Assembly (NCBI GenBank): GCA_001002285.1
Contig: LCLX01000001.1
Coordinates: 64,030-128,029, forward strand
Reading direction: 5' to 3'
Origin: Microgenomates group bacterium GW2011_GWC1_46_15
GTDB lineage: Bacteria > Patescibacteriota > Microgenomatia > UBA1400 > UBA12028
DNA length: 64,000 nucleotides
This document shows, piece by piece, positions 5,011 to 59,744 of this stretch. The first letter of the stretch is position 1, and each line of letters starts with the position of its first letter. Position numbers and translations under genes: made by a program. The notes under the pieces were generated by a model that had not been told where the DNA came from, made no database searches, and was given only the letters and a program-made list of their open reading frames with translations.

Positions 5011-5739
5011 ATGTTGAAGATTACAAACCTCCACGTTTTTGTTGAAAAAACACCGATTCTTTCCGGCGTTTCGTTGGTGGTAAAACCTGGCGAGGTACAC
5101 GCCATTATGGGGCCAAACGGAAGTGGAAAGTCCACGCTGGCGTATACATTGGCCGGCCATCCAAAATATAGCGTCACGAAGGGTAATGTAAAACTGGACA
5201 AGCACAACCTTCTTGAAATGACTCCAGACGAGCGTGCCCGTGCGGGGTTATTTTTGGCATTCCAGTATCCCGTGGAAATTGGCGGCGTTTCTGTACAGAA
5301 CTTCTTGCGCGCGGCATACGAAGCAAAGTTTGGTCCGCTCAAAAGCATTGTAGAGTTCCGCGAAATATTGCGGATTGAAGGGGAGAAAGTTGGAGTAAAA
5401 AAAGAGTTGTTAGAGCGCAATGTAAACGAAGGATTTTCTGGTGGTGAAAAAAAGCGGTTGGAGATTTTGCAGATGATGGTGTTAAAACCGAGCGTTGCTG
5501 TGTTGGATGAAACCGATTCAGGTCTTGACGTTGACGCGATTAAAACCGTTGCTCGCGGAGTTCGCGCAGTGATTGCCGCGCACAATACTGGAGTGATTGT
5601 GATTACGCATTATCAGCGTATCTTAAAATACCTTGAACCCGAGTTTGTGCACGTGATGGTAAAGGGAAATATTGTCAAAAGCGGCGGACAGAAATTTGGT
5701 GAAGAGTTAGAAAAAAACGGATATACATCGTATGTCTAG
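5011..5739 (+). CDS. sufC: Fe-S cluster assembly ATPase SufC
   Basis: HAIMGPNGSGKST, FLAFQYP, VNEGFSGGEKKRLEILQ, LDETDSGLD. Confidence 0.97.
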   Translation: MLKITNLHVFVEKTPILSGVSLVVKPGEVHAIMGPNGSGKSTLAYTLAGHPKYSVTKGNVKLDKHNLLEMTPDERARAGLFLAFQYPVEIGGVSVQNFLRAAYEAKFGPLKSIVEFREILRIEGEKVGVKKELLERNVNEGFSGGEKKRLEILQMMVLKPSVAVLDETDSGLDVDAIKTVARGVRAVIAAHNTGVIVITHYQRILKYLEPEFVHVMVKGNIVKSGGQKFGEELEKNGYTSYV

Positions 5740-8278
5740 ATTCGCTCCGATTAAACAACAGAAAAAACTCAAACTTCCCACAGATCCTGGTTACGCCTAC
5801 GGCTTCTCCGATCCAACAAACACGTATGCGTTTATCGAAAAACCCGGCCTTTCTCAAAGTGTTGTTGAAAATATTTCGAGTATGAAGGGCGAGCCAACAT
5901 GGATGCGGACAAAGCGCCTAGAGGCACTTAAGATTTTTCAATCAAAGTCCATGCCTCCTTGGGGCCCAAAACTCAACATAAACTTTGACGCGGTTCACTA
6001 TTACCTCAAGCCGGTTCAGCAGGAAACACAAAAATGGGAGGACGTTCCGGAGTACATTAAAAAAACATTTGACCGGCTTGGTACCCCGCAGGCTGAGCGT
6101 GAGTACTTGGCTGGTGTGAAAAATCAATTTGATTCAGAAGTTGTGCAGGGGAGCCTCAAAGACGTGTGGAAAAAACAGGGTGTCGTGTTTTTATCAATGG
6201 ATGAGGGACTGCGCCAGTATCCGGATTTGGTCCGTGAGTACTTTGGCAAAGTTATTCCGGTTGGCGACAACACATTCGCGGCGCTCAACACTTCGGTATG
6301 GAGTGGTGGTTCATTCGTGTACGTGCCGAAAGGCGTTGAAGTCACTTTTCCTTTGCAAGCGTACTTCCGTATTAACTCGCCCAACGCGGGGCAGTTTGAG
6401 CGCACGCTGATTATTGCCGATGAAGGGGCAAAAGTTTCGTACATTGAGGGATGTACTTCGCCGAGTTTTTCTTCTTCAAGCCTCCATTCCGCGGTCGTTG
6501 AAATTTTTGTGAAAAAAGGCGCGCGCGTGCAGTACACCACCGTGCAGAATTGGTATAAGCACGTGTACAACTTAGTAACAAAACGCGCGTTTGTGGAAGA
6601 AGAAGGCGAAATGATTTGGACAGATTTTAATATGGGCTGTTTAAGCGAGAGTTCTCGTTTATTTATAAAGGGAAGAGGATGTATTTCTATTAAAGATGTA
6701 AAAGCGGGAGACATTATTTGGTCTGTTGATATGCCGAACTTACAACCAATACAATCTCGCGTTATAGCATCAAAAATGACTGGAGTAAAACAAATTTTTC
6801 TCTTGGAAACAGAAAATCATCGTGAAATTGAAGCAACGAGTAATCATCCATTTCTTGTTCTCTCTCACGAGTCTGTGATGAAACATTATCAAACACTTCA
6901 ATGGAAGCAATTAAAAGATATTAAAGTAGGAGACTACATAGGAACGTCTAAGGGGCTTACAGATATATACCAAAGCAAACAATTGGAGTTTCATTTTACC
7001 AAAAAAAGAAAAACAAACAAAGTTATACATGACCCAACAATTCCTTCTAGCACATCAGAAAAATTGATGTGGATTATTGGTGCATATATGGGAGATGGGT
7101 ATTGTGAAAAGAATTCAAAAAAACAGTGGATTCGTGTATATTTTGCCATTCCCCCAAAGGATAAAATCAGGAAAAAAATGGAAAATACCCTTCAGGAAAT
7201 ATTTCATGTACTTCCGAAACCAAAAGGAATCTGTCTCACAATTCCTTCCATCATTGTTGCTGAATTTTTCCGTAGTTTACAACTCGGTGATACTGCAAAA
7301 ACCAAAAGAATTCCCTTTTGGATATATGAACTTCCGTTAAAAGAGAGACTTGCTTTTATTGAAGGGTACATGGATACAGACGGATCTGTCCGGGGAAATA
7401 AAAAAGACAAAAATGGTATACAACTTGGCCAAATTATATTTGCAAGCGTTCATAAATTATTACTTGAAGATTTGAAATTACTTATGATTAGTTGTGGTCT
7501 AAATCCACTTAAAATTTCTACATATACAAAGTTTCGAACATTATATAAAGGTAAATGGAAATACTACACATGTCACTTTCTCACGCACAATATTAGAGAT
7601 TACTTAACTTATATTAGGAGAAACGTTGAAGTACCGTCTCCTAGGATTGAATTTGTTCGAGTTGTGTCGATTATTCCACAGGGGAAAGAAAAAACATACG
7701 ATCTAGAAATTAAAGGAACATCTAATTTTATTGCAAATGGAATTATTGTTCATAATAGCAAGCTCACAATGAAGTATCCCTCGTTCATTTTGGCGGGCAA
7801 GGGTGCAAAAGGAGAAACGCTTTCTATGGCGTTGGCGGGTGCTGGCCAACACTTGGATACAGGGAGCAAAGCGATTCATCTCGCGCCATACACGTCGTCA
7901 ACGATTATCAGCAAATCTATTAGCAAAGACGGCGGGCGGACAAGTTACCGCGGGTTGGTGAGTATTGGCCCGAACGCGCACGGAAGCAAAAACAAGGTTG
8001 TGTGTGACGCACTTATTTTAGATTCACAGTCGCGGTCCGACACATACCCAACCGAACGCGTTTTGACGAACGACGTTTCGTTGGAGCACGAGGCAACGGT
8101 CTCAAAAATTGGCGAAGAACAACTCTTTTATTTGATGAGTCGCGGGCTTACAGAAGAACAGGCAAGCAAAATGATCGTGCGTGGCTTTGCCGAACCGTTG
8201 GTACGCAAACTGCCGCTTGAGTTTGCAGTAGAAATGAATCGGCTGATCGATATGGAAATGGAAGGATCGGTGGGATGA
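5732..8278 (+). CDS. sufB: Fe-S cluster scaffold SufB, intein-containing
   Basis: VWSGGSFVYVPKG, GQFERTLIIA, YIEGC, YNLVTKRA, TMKYPS, EHEATVSKI; extein totals 475 aa after removing the intein. Confidence 0.96.
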   Translation: MSRFAPIKQQKKLKLPTDPGYAYGFSDPTNTYAFIEKPGLSQSVVENISSMKGEPTWMRTKRLEALKIFQSKSMPPWGPKLNINFDAVHYYLKPVQQETQKWEDVPEYIKKTFDRLGTPQAEREYLAGVKNQFDSEVVQGSLKDVWKKQGVVFLSMDEGLRQYPDLVREYFGKVIPVGDNTFAALNTSVWSGGSFVYVPKGVEVTFPLQAYFRINSPNAGQFERTLIIADEGAKVSYIEGCTSPSFSSSSLHSAVVEIFVKKGARVQYTTVQNWYKHVYNLVTKRAFVEEEGEMIWTDFNMGCLSESSRLFIKGRGCISIKDVKAGDIIWSVDMPNLQPIQSRVIASKMTGVKQIFLLETENHREIEATSNHPFLVLSHESVMKHYQTLQWKQLKDIKVGDYIGTSKGLTDIYQSKQLEFHFTKKRKTNKVIHDPTIPSSTSEKLMWIIGAYMGDGYCEKNSKKQWIRVYFAIPPKDKIRKKMENTLQEIFHVLPKPKGICLTIPSIIVAEFFRSLQLGDTAKTKRIPFWIYELPLKERLAFIEGYMDTDGSVRGNKKDKNGIQLGQIIFASVHKLLLEDLKLLMISCGLNPLKISTYTKFRTLYKGKWKYYTCHFLTHNIRDYLTYIRRNVEVPSPRIEFVRVVSIIPQGKEKTYDLEIKGTSNFIANGIIVHNSKLTMKYPSFILAGKGAKGETLSMALAGAGQHLDTGSKAIHLAPYTSSTIISKSISKDGGRTSYRGLVSIGPNAHGSKNKVVCDALILDSQSRSDTYPTERVLTNDVSLEHEATVSKIGEEQLFYLMSRGLTEEQASKMIVRGFAEPLVRKLPLEFAVEMNRLIDMEMEGSVG
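6638..7756 (+). mobile_element. Intein with LAGLIDADG homing endonuclease (373 aa) in SufB
   Basis: N-junction NMG|CLSESS, block B ATSNHPF, LAGLIDADG-like LMWIIGAYMGDG and FIEGYMDTDGS, block F TYDLEI, C-junction VHN|S; AT-rich relative to flanks. Confidence 0.95.
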
Positions 8279-55445: not shown

Positions 55446-57377
55446 ATGACTCCCAACGACCTTCGCACACAGTACATTGCATTTTTCTTTGTTCGCGGGC
55501 ACGCAGAACTCCCTTCAGCCCCGCTTGTTCCGGAAAACGATCCCACCACGCTGTTTACAGGTTTTGGTATGCAGCCGCTCGTTCCATATCTTTTGGGTCA
55601 GCCCCATCCTGAAGGGAAACGCTTAGTAAACTCGCAAAAAAGTTTCCGGTCGGGGGATATTGAGGAAGTTGGGGACAATCGGCACACCACATTTTTTGAG
55701 ATGCTTGGAAATTGGTCGCTCGGCGACTACTTTAAAAAAGAGCAACTCCAATGGTGTTTTGAGTTTTTAACGCAAACGCTTGAACTCGACCCAAAGAAAT
55801 TATTTGTAACGGTATTCCGTGGAAACGATGCAGTTCCACGCGATACCGAGTCGGTGAAGATTTGGAAAACGCTTTTTTCCGATGTTGGTATGCAGGCGCA
55901 GGATGTTGATTTTTCTGAGCGCGACGGGATGCAAAACGGCCGCATTTTTTACTACGATGAAAAGAAAAACTGGTGGTCGCGGTCGGGCGTTCCCTCTGCA
56001 ATGCCTACGGGTGAGCCTGGTGGACCGGATAGCGAAGTGTTCTATGATTTTGGTGCAGAACTGGGTTTGCATGAGTCCTCGCCATACAAAAATCAGCCAT
56101 GCCACGTAAACTGCGACTGCGGCCGGTTTTTGGAAATCGGCAACAGCGTGTTTATGCAGTATCAAAAACAAGCCGATGGTTCGTTTACTGAACTTCCACA
56201 AAAAAATGTTGATTTTGGCGGTGGCTTGGAAAGAATTTTAGCTGCAGTACATGATGAACCAGATATATTCAAAACAGAATTTTTTAGTGATTTAAGAAAT
56301 AAATTACTCGACGGAATAAATAAAGTAATAATAGATCAGACCAATCCAGAGTATACAAAATTGACTAATACAAGGGAATCTAGAGTAAGAATATTTTTAG
56401 ACCACTCAAGGGCTGTAATATTTCTTATGGGTGAGGGCATAAAACCAGGGAAAAACGAAAGAGAATATGTGGTGCGTAGATTAATTAGAAGAGCTGATGA
56501 TCAGTTATCTATCCTTAAATTAGACCACGAATTGTACTGGAAGGAGGCAATTTCTCATTATAAAAAAGTTTACAAAAATGTTTATAGTGCCTCATGGGAT
56601 CAAGAAAATATTCTAGGCATCATAATCAATGAATTAAGAATATATGGTACTGTTTTTAAAAATGTTGAGAAAATAAAAATAGAATTAATAAAATTAAAAG
56701 AAAAATTTTCACCAATTTCCCTTGCTTCAACATACGCTGGTCCAGTTTTATTTCATTATCAAAGTACGTATGGAATACCTAGTACAGCAACTCTCCCATT
56801 AATAGAAGAAGTTGGTTTATTACCAAAATATGCTTTTACAAGTTTTAATAAAGAAAAAGCGTACCATCAGGAAAAATCACGCACGGCATCCAAGGGTATG
56901 TTTAAAGGGGGACTTGCGGATCACTCAGAAAACGTAACGAAGTACCACACTGCAACGCACCTTCTGCACGCCGCGCTGCGCAAAGTACTCGGTGAACACG
57001 TTTCTCAGCAGGGCTCAAACATTACGGGTGAACGACTGCGGTTTGATTTTTCGCATCCCACAGCGCTCACAGAAGAACAAAAAAAGAAAGTTGAAGATAT
57101 GATCAATGAAAAAATCAAAGAAGATCTTCCCGTAACGCAAGAAATGGTGTCCAAAGACGAGGCGCTCAAGCAGGGGGCGATGGCATTTTTCAAAGAAAAA
57201 TACGCCGATACCGTTTCCATGTATACGATCGGCAAAGATCTTAAAAAAGGCTGGTTTTCTAAAGAGTTGTGCGGCGGCCCGCACGTTGCGCATACCGGTG
57301 AAATTGGCCCAATAAAAATCACAAAAGAGGAATCAGTTGGCTCAGGGATTCGGAGAATCTATGTGCAGTTTGCCTAA
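55446..57377 (+). CDS. alaS: Alanine--tRNA ligase (no C-Ala domain)
   Basis: DPTTLFT, HTTFFEMLGNWS, DFGGGLER, editing HTATH and ELCGGPH. Confidence 0.96.
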   Translation: MTPNDLRTQYIAFFFVRGHAELPSAPLVPENDPTTLFTGFGMQPLVPYLLGQPHPEGKRLVNSQKSFRSGDIEEVGDNRHTTFFEMLGNWSLGDYFKKEQLQWCFEFLTQTLELDPKKLFVTVFRGNDAVPRDTESVKIWKTLFSDVGMQAQDVDFSERDGMQNGRIFYYDEKKNWWSRSGVPSAMPTGEPGGPDSEVFYDFGAELGLHESSPYKNQPCHVNCDCGRFLEIGNSVFMQYQKQADGSFTELPQKNVDFGGGLERILAAVHDEPDIFKTEFFSDLRNKLLDGINKVIIDQTNPEYTKLTNTRESRVRIFLDHSRAVIFLMGEGIKPGKNEREYVVRRLIRRADDQLSILKLDHELYWKEAISHYKKVYKNVYSASWDQENILGIIINELRIYGTVFKNVEKIKIELIKLKEKFSPISLASTYAGPVLFHYQSTYGIPSTATLPLIEEVGLLPKYAFTSFNKEKAYHQEKSRTASKGMFKGGLADHSENVTKYHTATHLLHAALRKVLGEHVSQQGSNITGERLRFDFSHPTALTEEQKKKVEDMINEKIKEDLPVTQEMVSKDEALKQGAMAFFKEKYADTVSMYTIGKDLKKGWFSKELCGGPHVAHTGEIGPIKITKEESVGSGIRRIYVQFA

Positions 57378-57404
57378 GCTCCTCTTTCTTGATTAAATAG
57401 GGGT

Positions 57405-59744
57405 ATGGGTCTGCCACATCTTTTTCCTGGTGCGAAAAAAACCACAGATCAGCGGGTGTTTCTTTCCCTGGATATTGGAGAAGAAACGATCACTGCTGGG
57501 TTGTGGAAGATTGAGAATAATACCATTGAGTTCCTCAAGACAAGTAGTCCAATTGAGTGGAAAGATACGTCTCCCACAGATGCCGCCGAGGCTGCGGACG
57601 TTGCGCTTGGAGAACTTGGCCAAGACGCCGACAACGTGCACGATATTGTGTTTGGACTTCAGGAATCTTGGGTGCGGGGGCAGACTATCGTTGTTGACCG
57701 CAAACCCGTTCTCAAACTTCTCAAAGAACAACTTGAGCTTCACCCCTTAGGATTTGTTGTAACAACAGAAGCGTTGCTCCATTATCTGCAAGCTGAAGAA
57801 GGCGGACCGATCAGCTCGATTCTTCTGCAGTACACAAGTGAGCACATCATTGTTACGCTCGTGAAAGCGGGCAAAGTGATTCGGACAGAACAGGTTGGTC
57901 GGAGTGGAAGTAGTGTTGCCGATGTTATCGAGGGATTAACGAGGTTTTCCGGTACCACATTACCATCGCGCATGATTGTGTACAGCGTCCGCATGAAAGC
58001 GGAGGAGTTGGAGCGGGAAAAACAAACGTTGCTCACGCAGGAATGGCAAAAGGCTGTGAAGTTTCTCCATGTTCCAAAAATTGATGTGCTCCCCCCACAT
58101 ACGGTGATTCGGGCGGTGTGTGTTTATGGAGGGACAGAAGTCGCGGTGTCGCTTGGATATATTCAGCGCGGTGAAGCGGAGTCGCTTGTTCAATCGGGAG
58201 TTGCGGTGGGAAACGTGCACGAGGAAGAACCATTGCCTGCAAAGCGTGGGAAAAGAATGGTTGTTGAAGAAGTTGTGCCGGATGTCGTTGTACCTCCACA
58301 AAAATCACCAATAACAATGAGTTCCGCGGAAGAGTTTGGATTTCATGATGTTGGGAGCGCTACGGGTGTGGAACAAGAACAACCGCGGGAAGAAATAAAA
58401 ATCCGCGGGTATGTAACAGAAGAAGATACTTCGAATGTTTCTGGTATGGAACAGGAACGCGTAGAATTGCAGCCTCTATCGCAAATACAAAAACGCGCGT
58501 TCACCCTCCCCTCATTGGGGGCAATGTTTAGTGCAGTGCGTCTGCCTAAAATATCTCTGCCAAAAATTTCTATTCAACTACCGTCACTTTCCGGCGGCCA
58601 GACGGGACTAATGATTGGTATCGTACTCGTTGTTCTTCTCCTGGGAGTTGGCGGCGGCGCGTTCGCGCTTTCAAAAACAATGACGACAGCGTTCACCGTT
58701 GTGCTTAACACATCACCCATTTCAAAAGACATTGATATTACGTTGGATCCCACCGCAGCGCAGTCTAACCCCGAAGCAAATGTGGTAAAAGCGACAGTTA
58801 TAGAAAAAGAAGTATCGGGCGCGATGGAAGGTGCGACAACGGGAACGAATATTGTTGGCGACAAGGCAAAAGGAAAAGTAACGATATATAACGCAACGGG
58901 GAGCGAGAAAAAGTTTCCTGCGGGAACAACAATTACTGCGGCCAACGGCTTTAAGTTTACGCTTGATGGAGAAGTGATCATTGCAAGTTCTTCCGGCTCT
59001 TCCGCGCTCAACTCTCAGTTGGGTCAGGCTGATGTAACAGTGACTGCCGCAAAAATCGGCGCAGACTCTAATCTCCCAGCAAAAACGGAGTTTTCTGTAG
59101 CGAACTTTGACAAAAAAACGTATGTTGCGTCTAATGCCGATGCTTTTTCAGGTGGAACGAGCAGAGAAATTCAGGCGGTTTCAAAAGCAGACATAGACTC
59201 TCTTTCCAGCCTATTAACAGAAGATCTTAAGAAAAAAGCAAAAGACGCGCTCGTCCAGGGGGAAATTGGTGACATACACATCATTCCGGCGGATGAGTTT
59301 GAAGTCAAAAGCCAGCAGTTTAGCGCAAAAGCGGGTGACGAAGCAAAACTGGTAAATGTTTCGATGACGCTTACGGCAAAAGGCGTGTCATATACCACCG
59401 CCGACCTCCTTCCGATCGCGCAACGGCAGCTTCAAGATCTCTTGCTCGATGGCGCAGTGTTACGACAGGAAAAAACGCAGTTAACTGTACAATCGCTCGA
59501 GCGTGACAAGGAAGCATATCAGCTGAAAGTTTCACTCGTGTCAGAAACAATTCCGGCGTTTGATAAATCTTCCGCGATCTCAAACATTATGGGTAGAACA
59601 CTTTTGCAGAGCGTGAACATACTCAAAGACATGAAAGAGGTACAAGACGCGCGTGTTGTTGTTTTACCAGGCATCGCAAAAACTGTTTTTGGCGTGGTTC
59701 CAAAAGATACGAAACGCGTAACAATGCAGACAACGTTAGAGTAA
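57405..59744 (+). CDS. Transmembrane protein: FtsA/PilM-like N-terminus, baseplate-J-like extracellular domain
   Basis: FLSLDIG, L.PLGFVVTTEAL; one TM helix; KAKGKVTIYN, PAGT, VTAAKIGADSN, FSGG. Confidence 0.65.
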   Translation: MGLPHLFPGAKKTTDQRVFLSLDIGEETITAGLWKIENNTIEFLKTSSPIEWKDTSPTDAAEAADVALGELGQDADNVHDIVFGLQESWVRGQTIVVDRKPVLKLLKEQLELHPLGFVVTTEALLHYLQAEEGGPISSILLQYTSEHIIVTLVKAGKVIRTEQVGRSGSSVADVIEGLTRFSGTTLPSRMIVYSVRMKAEELEREKQTLLTQEWQKAVKFLHVPKIDVLPPHTVIRAVCVYGGTEVAVSLGYIQRGEAESLVQSGVAVGNVHEEEPLPAKRGKRMVVEEVVPDVVVPPQKSPITMSSAEEFGFHDVGSATGVEQEQPREEIKIRGYVTEEDTSNVSGMEQERVELQPLSQIQKRAFTLPSLGAMFSAVRLPKISLPKISIQLPSLSGGQTGLMIGIVLVVLLLGVGGGAFALSKTMTTAFTVVLNTSPISKDIDITLDPTAAQSNPEANVVKATVIEKEVSGAMEGATTGTNIVGDKAKGKVTIYNATGSEKKFPAGTTITAANGFKFTLDGEVIIASSSGSSALNSQLGQADVTVTAAKIGADSNLPAKTEFSVANFDKKTYVASNADAFSGGTSREIQAVSKADIDSLSSLLTEDLKKKAKDALVQGEIGDIHIIPADEFEVKSQQFSAKAGDEAKLVNVSMTLTAKGVSYTTADLLPIAQRQLQDLLLDGAVLRQEKTQLTVQSLERDKEAYQLKVSLVSETIPAFDKSSAISNIMGRTLLQSVNILKDMKEVQDARVVVLPGIAKTVFGVVPKDTKRVTMQTTLE

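Follow-up and report, generated by a model that had tools for sequence, protein, structure and literature searches.

How did a bacterium with a tiny genome come to carry an alanyl-tRNA synthetase (AlaRS) whose tRNA-recognition part differs sharply in composition from the rest of the same gene, and does this enzyme still read the G3:U70 pair of tRNA-Ala? The gene in question, alaS, occupies positions 55446..57377 (+) of the window, by which we mean the whole 64,000-nucleotide stretch of DNA that was analysed, and is the sole, single-copy AlaRS gene of a groundwater bacterium with a genome of 914 kb in 8 contigs. Its reading frame is intact despite an abrupt shift in composition, as had been claimed originally, and encodes a short ('small') AlaRS of 643 aa with catalytic, tRNA-recognition (ATL) and editing domains but without C-Ala. 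The protein passes the threshold of NCBIfam NF002436 (594.6 bits, cut-off 529), matches only PF01411 and PF07973, and has named relatives that are Patescibacteria. No ORF of more than 41 aa overlaps alaS in other frames, and the neighbouring DNA on both sides matches the loci of G002 and G007. Downstream, at 57405–59744, lies a gene for a membrane protein of 779 aa in which a Baseplate J-like domain was recognized, and it is followed by a sortase gene.

Both ends of the enzyme appeared to be native. The catalytic domain (aa 1–263, 55446..56234, +) has host-like codon use and is 79% identical to that of G002, and the residue alignment (166 rows) showed that the catalytic residues D256, G258 and R263 are kept. 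The native editing domain (56946..57284, +, PF07973) retains its HxxxH, Q521 and CxxxH motifs, in agreement with the original prediction; the residues H501, T504, H505, Q521, C609 and H613 are all present, and are invariant or nearly so across the 166 rows. Phe40 of the catalytic domain (55563–55565) stands at the 'A' position of the E. coli TNAGM loop, which in the other rows is Ser, Ala or Cys, with 2 gaps. At 55564, many contigs of runs X12 and X13 have a C, which makes the residue Ser. Phe40 is a recent change close to the active site, and possibly it is linked to the replacement described below.

The part between these domains is different. The G+C counts on which attention had first been drawn to it (9/60 at 56641–56700, 36/60 at 56941–57000) are exact, and a maximum-likelihood two-breakpoint fit placed a low-GC block at 56230–56857, within alaS, with a GC content of 0.295 inside and 0.477 outside (log-likelihood gain 29.7). 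GC3 is 0.18 in the block vs 0.49 in each of the two flanks, and the codons AGA (9 in the block vs 1 outside), ATA (14 vs 1) and TTA (14 vs 3) are concentrated in it. A GC3 of 0.19 or less was reached by none of 4194 windows of 210 codons from other ORFs, and the drop from 0.49 to 0.18 is greater than the largest drop (−0.18) among 54 others. When 281 long ORFs were ranked by their internal low-GC3 blocks, alaS came second, after an intein-like block in sufB. The block coincides with the whole tRNA-recognition domain (ATL, or Mid1–Mid2; aa 264–473, 56235..56864, +), which we refer to as the cassette. Its Atlas model matches an AlaRS domain (TM 0.76), and it is a replacement rather than an intein or another inserted element, with an aligned cover of 86% vs 0% for the inserts in dnaB and sufB. 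Among the 192 scored orthologue pairs (of 336 reciprocal best hits with G002, the nearest relative), alaS has the strongest internal identity trough of the replacement type, outscored only by the insertions in dnaB and sufB. We conclude that an in-frame replacement of the tRNA-recognition domain by a foreign mobile cassette took place almost certainly.

A few other loci of this genome drew our attention in the same scan. An ORF at about 5730–8275 of the window (G000 C1:69761–72304), which we take to be sufB-like, carries a low-GC3, intein-like insert of about 370 residues that is absent in G002, and a similar insert is present in dnaB (C2:108117–110705). An ORF at G000 C5:41203–44028, presumably IleRS-like, has an identity trough vs G002 at residues ~771–879 (0.44 vs 0.84/0.71), with a GC3 of 0.34 vs 0.51, and is possibly a second case of a swapped tRNA-binding segment.

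The cassette belongs to a rare but recurring family. It is only 21–27% identical to the corresponding segments of 29 relatives (the best with loci of the 40 relatives searched), whose N-terminal flanks are 55–79% identical to that of our gene, and 51–52% identical to the segments of four metagenomic proteins, P0002–P0005. A profile of nine segments separated 24 proteins (159 bits or more) from the next one (110 bits) among 8000 scored candidates, and all 24 are short AlaRS. We compared these 24 carriers with 142 non-carrier short AlaRS, which are a non-random sample (166 rows together). The hallmarks fixed in the family are FLDH, an acid at the site of E. coli Gly307, and DQL. In our protein, the first of them lies in RIFLDHSR (56388..56411, +), of which F317 is found in 24/24 carriers vs 1/142 others, and the last in RRADDQL (56487..56507, +), of which D352, the counterpart of E. 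coli R319, is Asp in 23/24 carriers vs 2/142 others. By itself, the PGKNERE motif does not mark the family, since the ordinary domains of L034, L035, L037, L038 and L042 have it too.

In the order, the full cassette was found in 1/286 genomes (a set that counts the unpublished genome G169), namely the one studied here, besides a distant member in G039 (= G287). No further clear carriers were found among 401 genomes of the class, 401 of the phylum and 96 of family f25. Representatives clustered at 50% yielded 2 strong matches, both full-length, although such clustering can hide carriers. No stand-alone copy of the cassette was detected, and there were 3 weak matches among proteins of 96–403 aa. 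The contig of G009 ends at residue 281, where its sequence already looks ordinary. Two records, L032 and L033, are titled Gammaproteobacteria and Pseudomonadales, yet the alaS genes of both are Patescibacteria-like, and L033 lies in G287, which is of the same order as our genome; their titles are probably wrong.

A viral source was considered and set aside. With full-length alaS as the query, 39 viral loci were found; the queries A1 and A3 revealed no carrier in viral contigs, and phage records gave just 12 weak matches, to ordinary alaS. Neither the viral nor the phage set revealed a donor lineage, and no donor genome, mobility gene or antagonist was found, the nearest segments being only 51–55% identical.

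Phylogenies of the two parts of the gene conflict, as expected of a mosaic gene. In the segment tree (54 rows), nine carriers form a single clade (support 99, starred), while in the flank tree our gene groups with family f1 (support 100/99), and a single clade of the five core carriers is rejected (p-AU 1e-33). When the carrier label was mapped on a flank tree of 166 rows and 24 carriers (FastTree; duplicate and incomplete loci were excluded, as was L038, which is of the long form), 15 changes were needed, 13 of them forced by starred branches; gains and losses are indistinguishable in this count. Part of the spread was vertical, as some carriers group together on the flank tree (P0163, P0171, P0174 and P0175, and also P0160, P0162 and P0164). 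In pairs of a carrier and a non-carrier with flanks 75–85% identical, the segments are 29–38% identical (8 pairs), as compared with medians of 59–67% between non-carriers (56 pairs). Another cluster of alaS middle domains, ordinary-looking ones from L017, L025, L046 and L050 (support 99, starred), sits on unrelated backbones; each of these segments is AT-richer than its own flanks, and they also appear to have been swapped.

The limits of the exchange are much the same in the carrier/sister pairs compared. On the left, the inferred crossover zone is motif 3 (DFGGGLER, 56211..56234, +), with the GC break at 56230, and on the right it is HQEKSRTASKGMFKGGLAD (56865..56921, +), with the GC break at 56857. 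Contigs of a presumed sister, 91–92% identical to our flanks, end or begin at the same places: a 91% contig ceases to match at 56234, in the 5′ anchor, and 92% contigs match only from 56868 on, in the 3′ anchor, whereas 555 and 518 of their letters before that position are unlike ours. Since these contigs have similar identity to our sequence and share variants, they would come from one close organism with a different middle domain. The codon use of the cassette has not drifted toward that of the host, and a sister of about 92% identity lacks it; therefore the swap appears to be recent. At the protein level, the breakpoints lay at 268–282 on the left and at 472–485 on the right in 11/11 carrier/sister pairs, with an identity trough that spans the region from motif 3 to the HQExSR..FKGGLAD linker, and no such trough was seen in the vertical pairs L002/L003 and L052/L054. 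This argument loses weight because the cassette limits are also those of the region that varies naturally in AlaRS, where conservation by itself would make breakpoints agree to some extent. Even so, the domain swap proposed in the original prediction is borne out by the conflict between the segment and flank trees, by the recurrence of the family and by the common breakpoints.

Inside the cassette, an 11-residue insertion at 56310–56370 (aa 289–308) has a form that is shared with the distant members P0166 and P0167 and absent from the nearest members, which hints that cassettes have recombined with one another. Near the cassette start, a 1-base insertion and a 1-base deletion, 14 bases apart (56304 and 56318), were seen in one contig each of runs X12 and X13; they reflect either another version of the cassette or an artefact of the alignment.

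Could the block be a chimeric assembly, or a product of localised hypermutation, as had also been proposed? A separately assembled Logan contig of 6090 nt covers 55689–58000 with 0 differences, and is the contig that spans both junctions, but its run is possibly that of the source sample, which counts in favour of an artefact. However, a contig of another study crosses the 3′ junction (56675–56902, 228 letters, 4 of them different), and exact pieces of similar depth, from within the block and from beyond it, were obtained in a further study. As judged from assembled contigs, a chimera is unlikely, because contigs span the junctions and the ~92% sister matches the flanks only. Hypermutation finds no support either: 23 other proteins carry the same divergent module with the same invariant residues, blastn found no second copy of the segment in the genome that could serve as a template, such as the target of a diversity-generating retroelement would have, and no repeats were found at the junctions. 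We consider an origin of the block by either of these routes extremely improbable.

How, then, would the replaced domain recognize its tRNA? An alignment with 3hxu, whose numbering matches that used in PMC6055181, confirmed that E. coli PSNENRGY corresponds to PGKNEREY and LYDTYGFP to YQSTYGIP. In the major-groove motif PGKNEREY (56445..56468, +), K336 takes the place of E. coli N303, with N337 adjoining, and E340 that of G307; in the minor-groove motif YQSTYGIP (56757..56780, +), Q439 corresponds to Y399, S440 to D400 and G443 to G403, the last site being invariant. The Asn303–Asp400 dyad of the canonical G3:U70-reading AlaRS, conserved as a pair in more than 95% of 2,500 AlaRS according to the accessible part of PMC6055181, is therefore absent. 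The statement that both reading residues are changed holds literally, but it goes too far. The loss of Asp is a background of the lineage, as the site is Gln in 20, Glu in 15, Ala in 1 and Thr in 1 of 37 relatives from the order, none of which has Asp, and as Asp is found in only 10/142 non-carrier short AlaRS. Conversely, Asn303 is retained in 36/37 of these relatives, so its change is specific to the cassette, but the Asn has rather moved by one place (KN for NK): Lys stands at 303 in 16/24 carriers vs Asn in 129/142 others, and the carriers have Asn at 304 in 15 cases and at 303 in 6 (21/24 in total). The surroundings changed too. The site of Gly307 is Glu, Asp or Gln in 24/24 carriers vs Gly in 128/142 others, the site of Asp400 is Ser, Thr or Ala in 24/24, an aromatic residue at 399 is retained in only 4/24, and the mean charge of the recognition helix is +2.5 in carriers vs +5.6 in others.

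The tRNA itself is ordinary. All three tRNA-Ala genes of the genome have G3:U70 and A73, and also C4:G69, and their acceptor stems are identical to those of the non-carrier G002. The tRNA-Ala of the carriers G286 and G287 have G3:U70 in 6/6 genes, as do 16 tRNA-Ala from seven other genomes. No non-Ala tRNA with G3:U70 was found among the 47, 41 and 37 tRNA genes of the three carrier genomes, in all of which near-cognate tRNAs with G1:C72, G2:C71, G3:C70 and A73 persist. Other peculiarities of the tRNA set are a tRNA-Ser with the anticodon ACT, which is unusual for bacteria (G000 C1:56421–56504, outside the window), and the presence of tRNA-Arg(GCG) and tRNA-Ile(TAT). A link of tRNA-Ser(ACT) with the cassette was dismissed, as the pattern occurs in 30/101 genomes of the order and in 11/13 non-carrier members of the family.

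We propose the following scenario. The tRNA-recognition domain of this essential gene was exchanged in frame, from one conserved anchor to the other, for a rare cassette that is found, with the same boundaries, on many unrelated Patescibacteria alaS backbones. The exchange would be a recent one, in which DNA taken up by the competence machinery (comEC is present in the genome) underwent a double crossover at these anchors. The enzyme would still charge ordinary G3:U70 tRNA-Ala through rewired contacts, with Lys or the shifted Asn on the major-groove side, main-chain contacts around Ser and Gly403 on the minor-groove side, and a recognition helix that is less basic. As in the archaeal and human enzymes, the substrate would be selected by fit, with no positive reading by Asp400. 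G3:U70 is likely to remain the main determinant for this AlaRS.

Three other readings have to be weighed against this one. A non-canonical tRNA identity was among the outcomes named in the original prediction; the domain would then have changed together with a tRNA-Ala without G3:U70, or would charge an extra tRNA. Nothing but the residue changes speaks for this reading, and at the level of tRNA genes it is contradicted by G3:U70 in 9/9 tRNA-Ala genes of the three carrier genomes, which also contain no other tRNA with this pair, and the spread of tRNA-Ser(ACT) irrespective of the cassette lends it no help. We regard it as very improbable. Relaxed specificity, which the original prediction also named, deserves more consideration; an enzyme without Asn303 would then alanylate G3:C70 tRNAs such as tRNA-Val(GAC) or tRNA-Leu(TAA) and so cause low-level mistranslation. 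The prevalence of Lys at 303, the substitutions at 400 and the rarity of an aromatic residue at 399 in carriers would all fit it. In E. coli, as reported in the part of PMC6055181 available, the activity of N303A is 1.9-fold and that of D400A falls to 0.042, and both N303A and N303A/D400A charge G3:C70; bilaterian mitochondrial AlaRS lost both residues together with G3:U70 reading (PMC7033119, in its available part). However, 21/24 carriers keep an Asn at 303 or 304, six of them at 303 itself, and a Lys could, from its chemistry, donate to O4 of U70 and repel N4 of C70. Moreover, the carrier genomes have kept both G3:U70 and the G3:C70/A73 competitors, and the mitochondrial enzyme uses C-Ala instead (PMC7033119, same part), a domain that our AlaRS lacks. 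Relaxed specificity thus seems to us unlikely.

The remaining reading concerns why the cassette spread. Domains for tRNA recognition might simply be interchangeable between the anchors, the cassette being a fast-evolving AT-rich allele of no advantage. A second segment cluster that is likewise incongruent and AT-richer than its flanks indicates that the exchange may be general and neutral; the tRNAs are unchanged, the full cassette is rare, and aaRS alleles of equal function are known to be replaced through recombination in conserved flanks (PMC3191353, accessible text). But a single rare family is found on 13 or more backbones, its fixed changes lie exactly at tRNA-facing positions, and among the scored orthologue pairs no other gene stands out as much for a replacement as alaS, so that neutral shuffling appears rather unlikely, if less so than relaxed specificity. 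As a guess, the spread of the cassette might instead reflect diversifying selection on this tRNA-binding surface of the enzyme by an antagonist, such as a phage or toxin protein or a foreign tRNA; by analogy with mosaic pbp/penA segments, this is a serious possibility, though one we would stop short of calling probable. The explanation that we favour overall, by a modest degree, is a domain-sized exchangeable allele with rewired G3:U70 contacts, whose spread an antagonist might have driven.

In its boldest form, this explanation would make the tRNA-gripping domain of AlaRS an arms-race locus in small-genome bacteria, with cassettes that read G3:U70 in a fourth, undescribed way; we put this forward as a speculation. 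Equally speculative is the surface that such reading would use, with Lys or a shifted Asn at 303, acids at 307 and 319 and Ser at 400, and with neither Asp400 nor C-Ala. No firmer is the motive, that cassettes might escape an antagonist borne by a phage or a toxin, or refuse a foreign tRNA.

These observations matter in several respects. A natural family that redesigned both contact faces while its tRNA stayed canonical offers enzymes for testing how G3:U70 can be read with neither the dyad nor C-Ala. Repeated in-frame exchange of a domain at about 25% identity, within a translation gene that is essential, suggests that tRNA charging is under some selective pressure in CPR bacteria, and the use of alaS as a phylogenetic marker in them calls for caution.

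Mosaic genes of the pbp/penA type arise by interspecies recombination, which places a foreign segment in an essential chromosomal gene in several lineages, and their segments spread under drugs. The alaS cassette is likewise a foreign segment in an essential gene that recurs across lineages, but donor and host segments are only about 25% identical here, which lies far beyond usual mosaics. The homeoalleles of aaRS, as described in the accessible text of PMC3191353, are also alike: divergent versions (about 29% identical in the case of ThrRS), patchily distributed and present one per genome, replace each other at the same locus via recombination in conserved flanks, and the AlaRS variants likewise are divergent alternatives at one locus, one per genome, with a patchy spread. 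However, the unit exchanged there is a whole gene, whereas here it is one in-frame domain (aa ~264–473), with crossovers in coding motifs. The small-AlaRS subgroup (Alvarez-Carreno et al., bioRxiv 10.1101/2023.05.29.542759), found in CPR as is our enzyme, has the same build of catalytic, ATL and editing domains, with neither barrel nor C-Ala; the portion of the preprint text available describes neither an exchange of the ATL domain alone nor a family with altered G3:U70 contacts, in which the cassette differs. A search of the literature, with subscription papers mostly outside its reach, found no description of the cassette family or of ATL-domain exchange. As to recognition, human cytosolic and archaeal AlaRS, which select G:U by fit and without positive Asp/Asn contacts (PMC6055181, available part), are comparable, as is the natural loss of the dyad in bilaterian mitochondrial AlaRS; but in mitochondria G3:U70 was lost as well and the enzyme relies on C-Ala (PMC7033119, available part), whereas our enzyme has no C-Ala, its tRNA-Ala retains G3:U70, and the residue change travels as a cassette. 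Overall, this alaS belongs with the small-AlaRS and works like an aaRS homeoallele or a mosaic gene, but the unit that is exchanged in it is a single domain.
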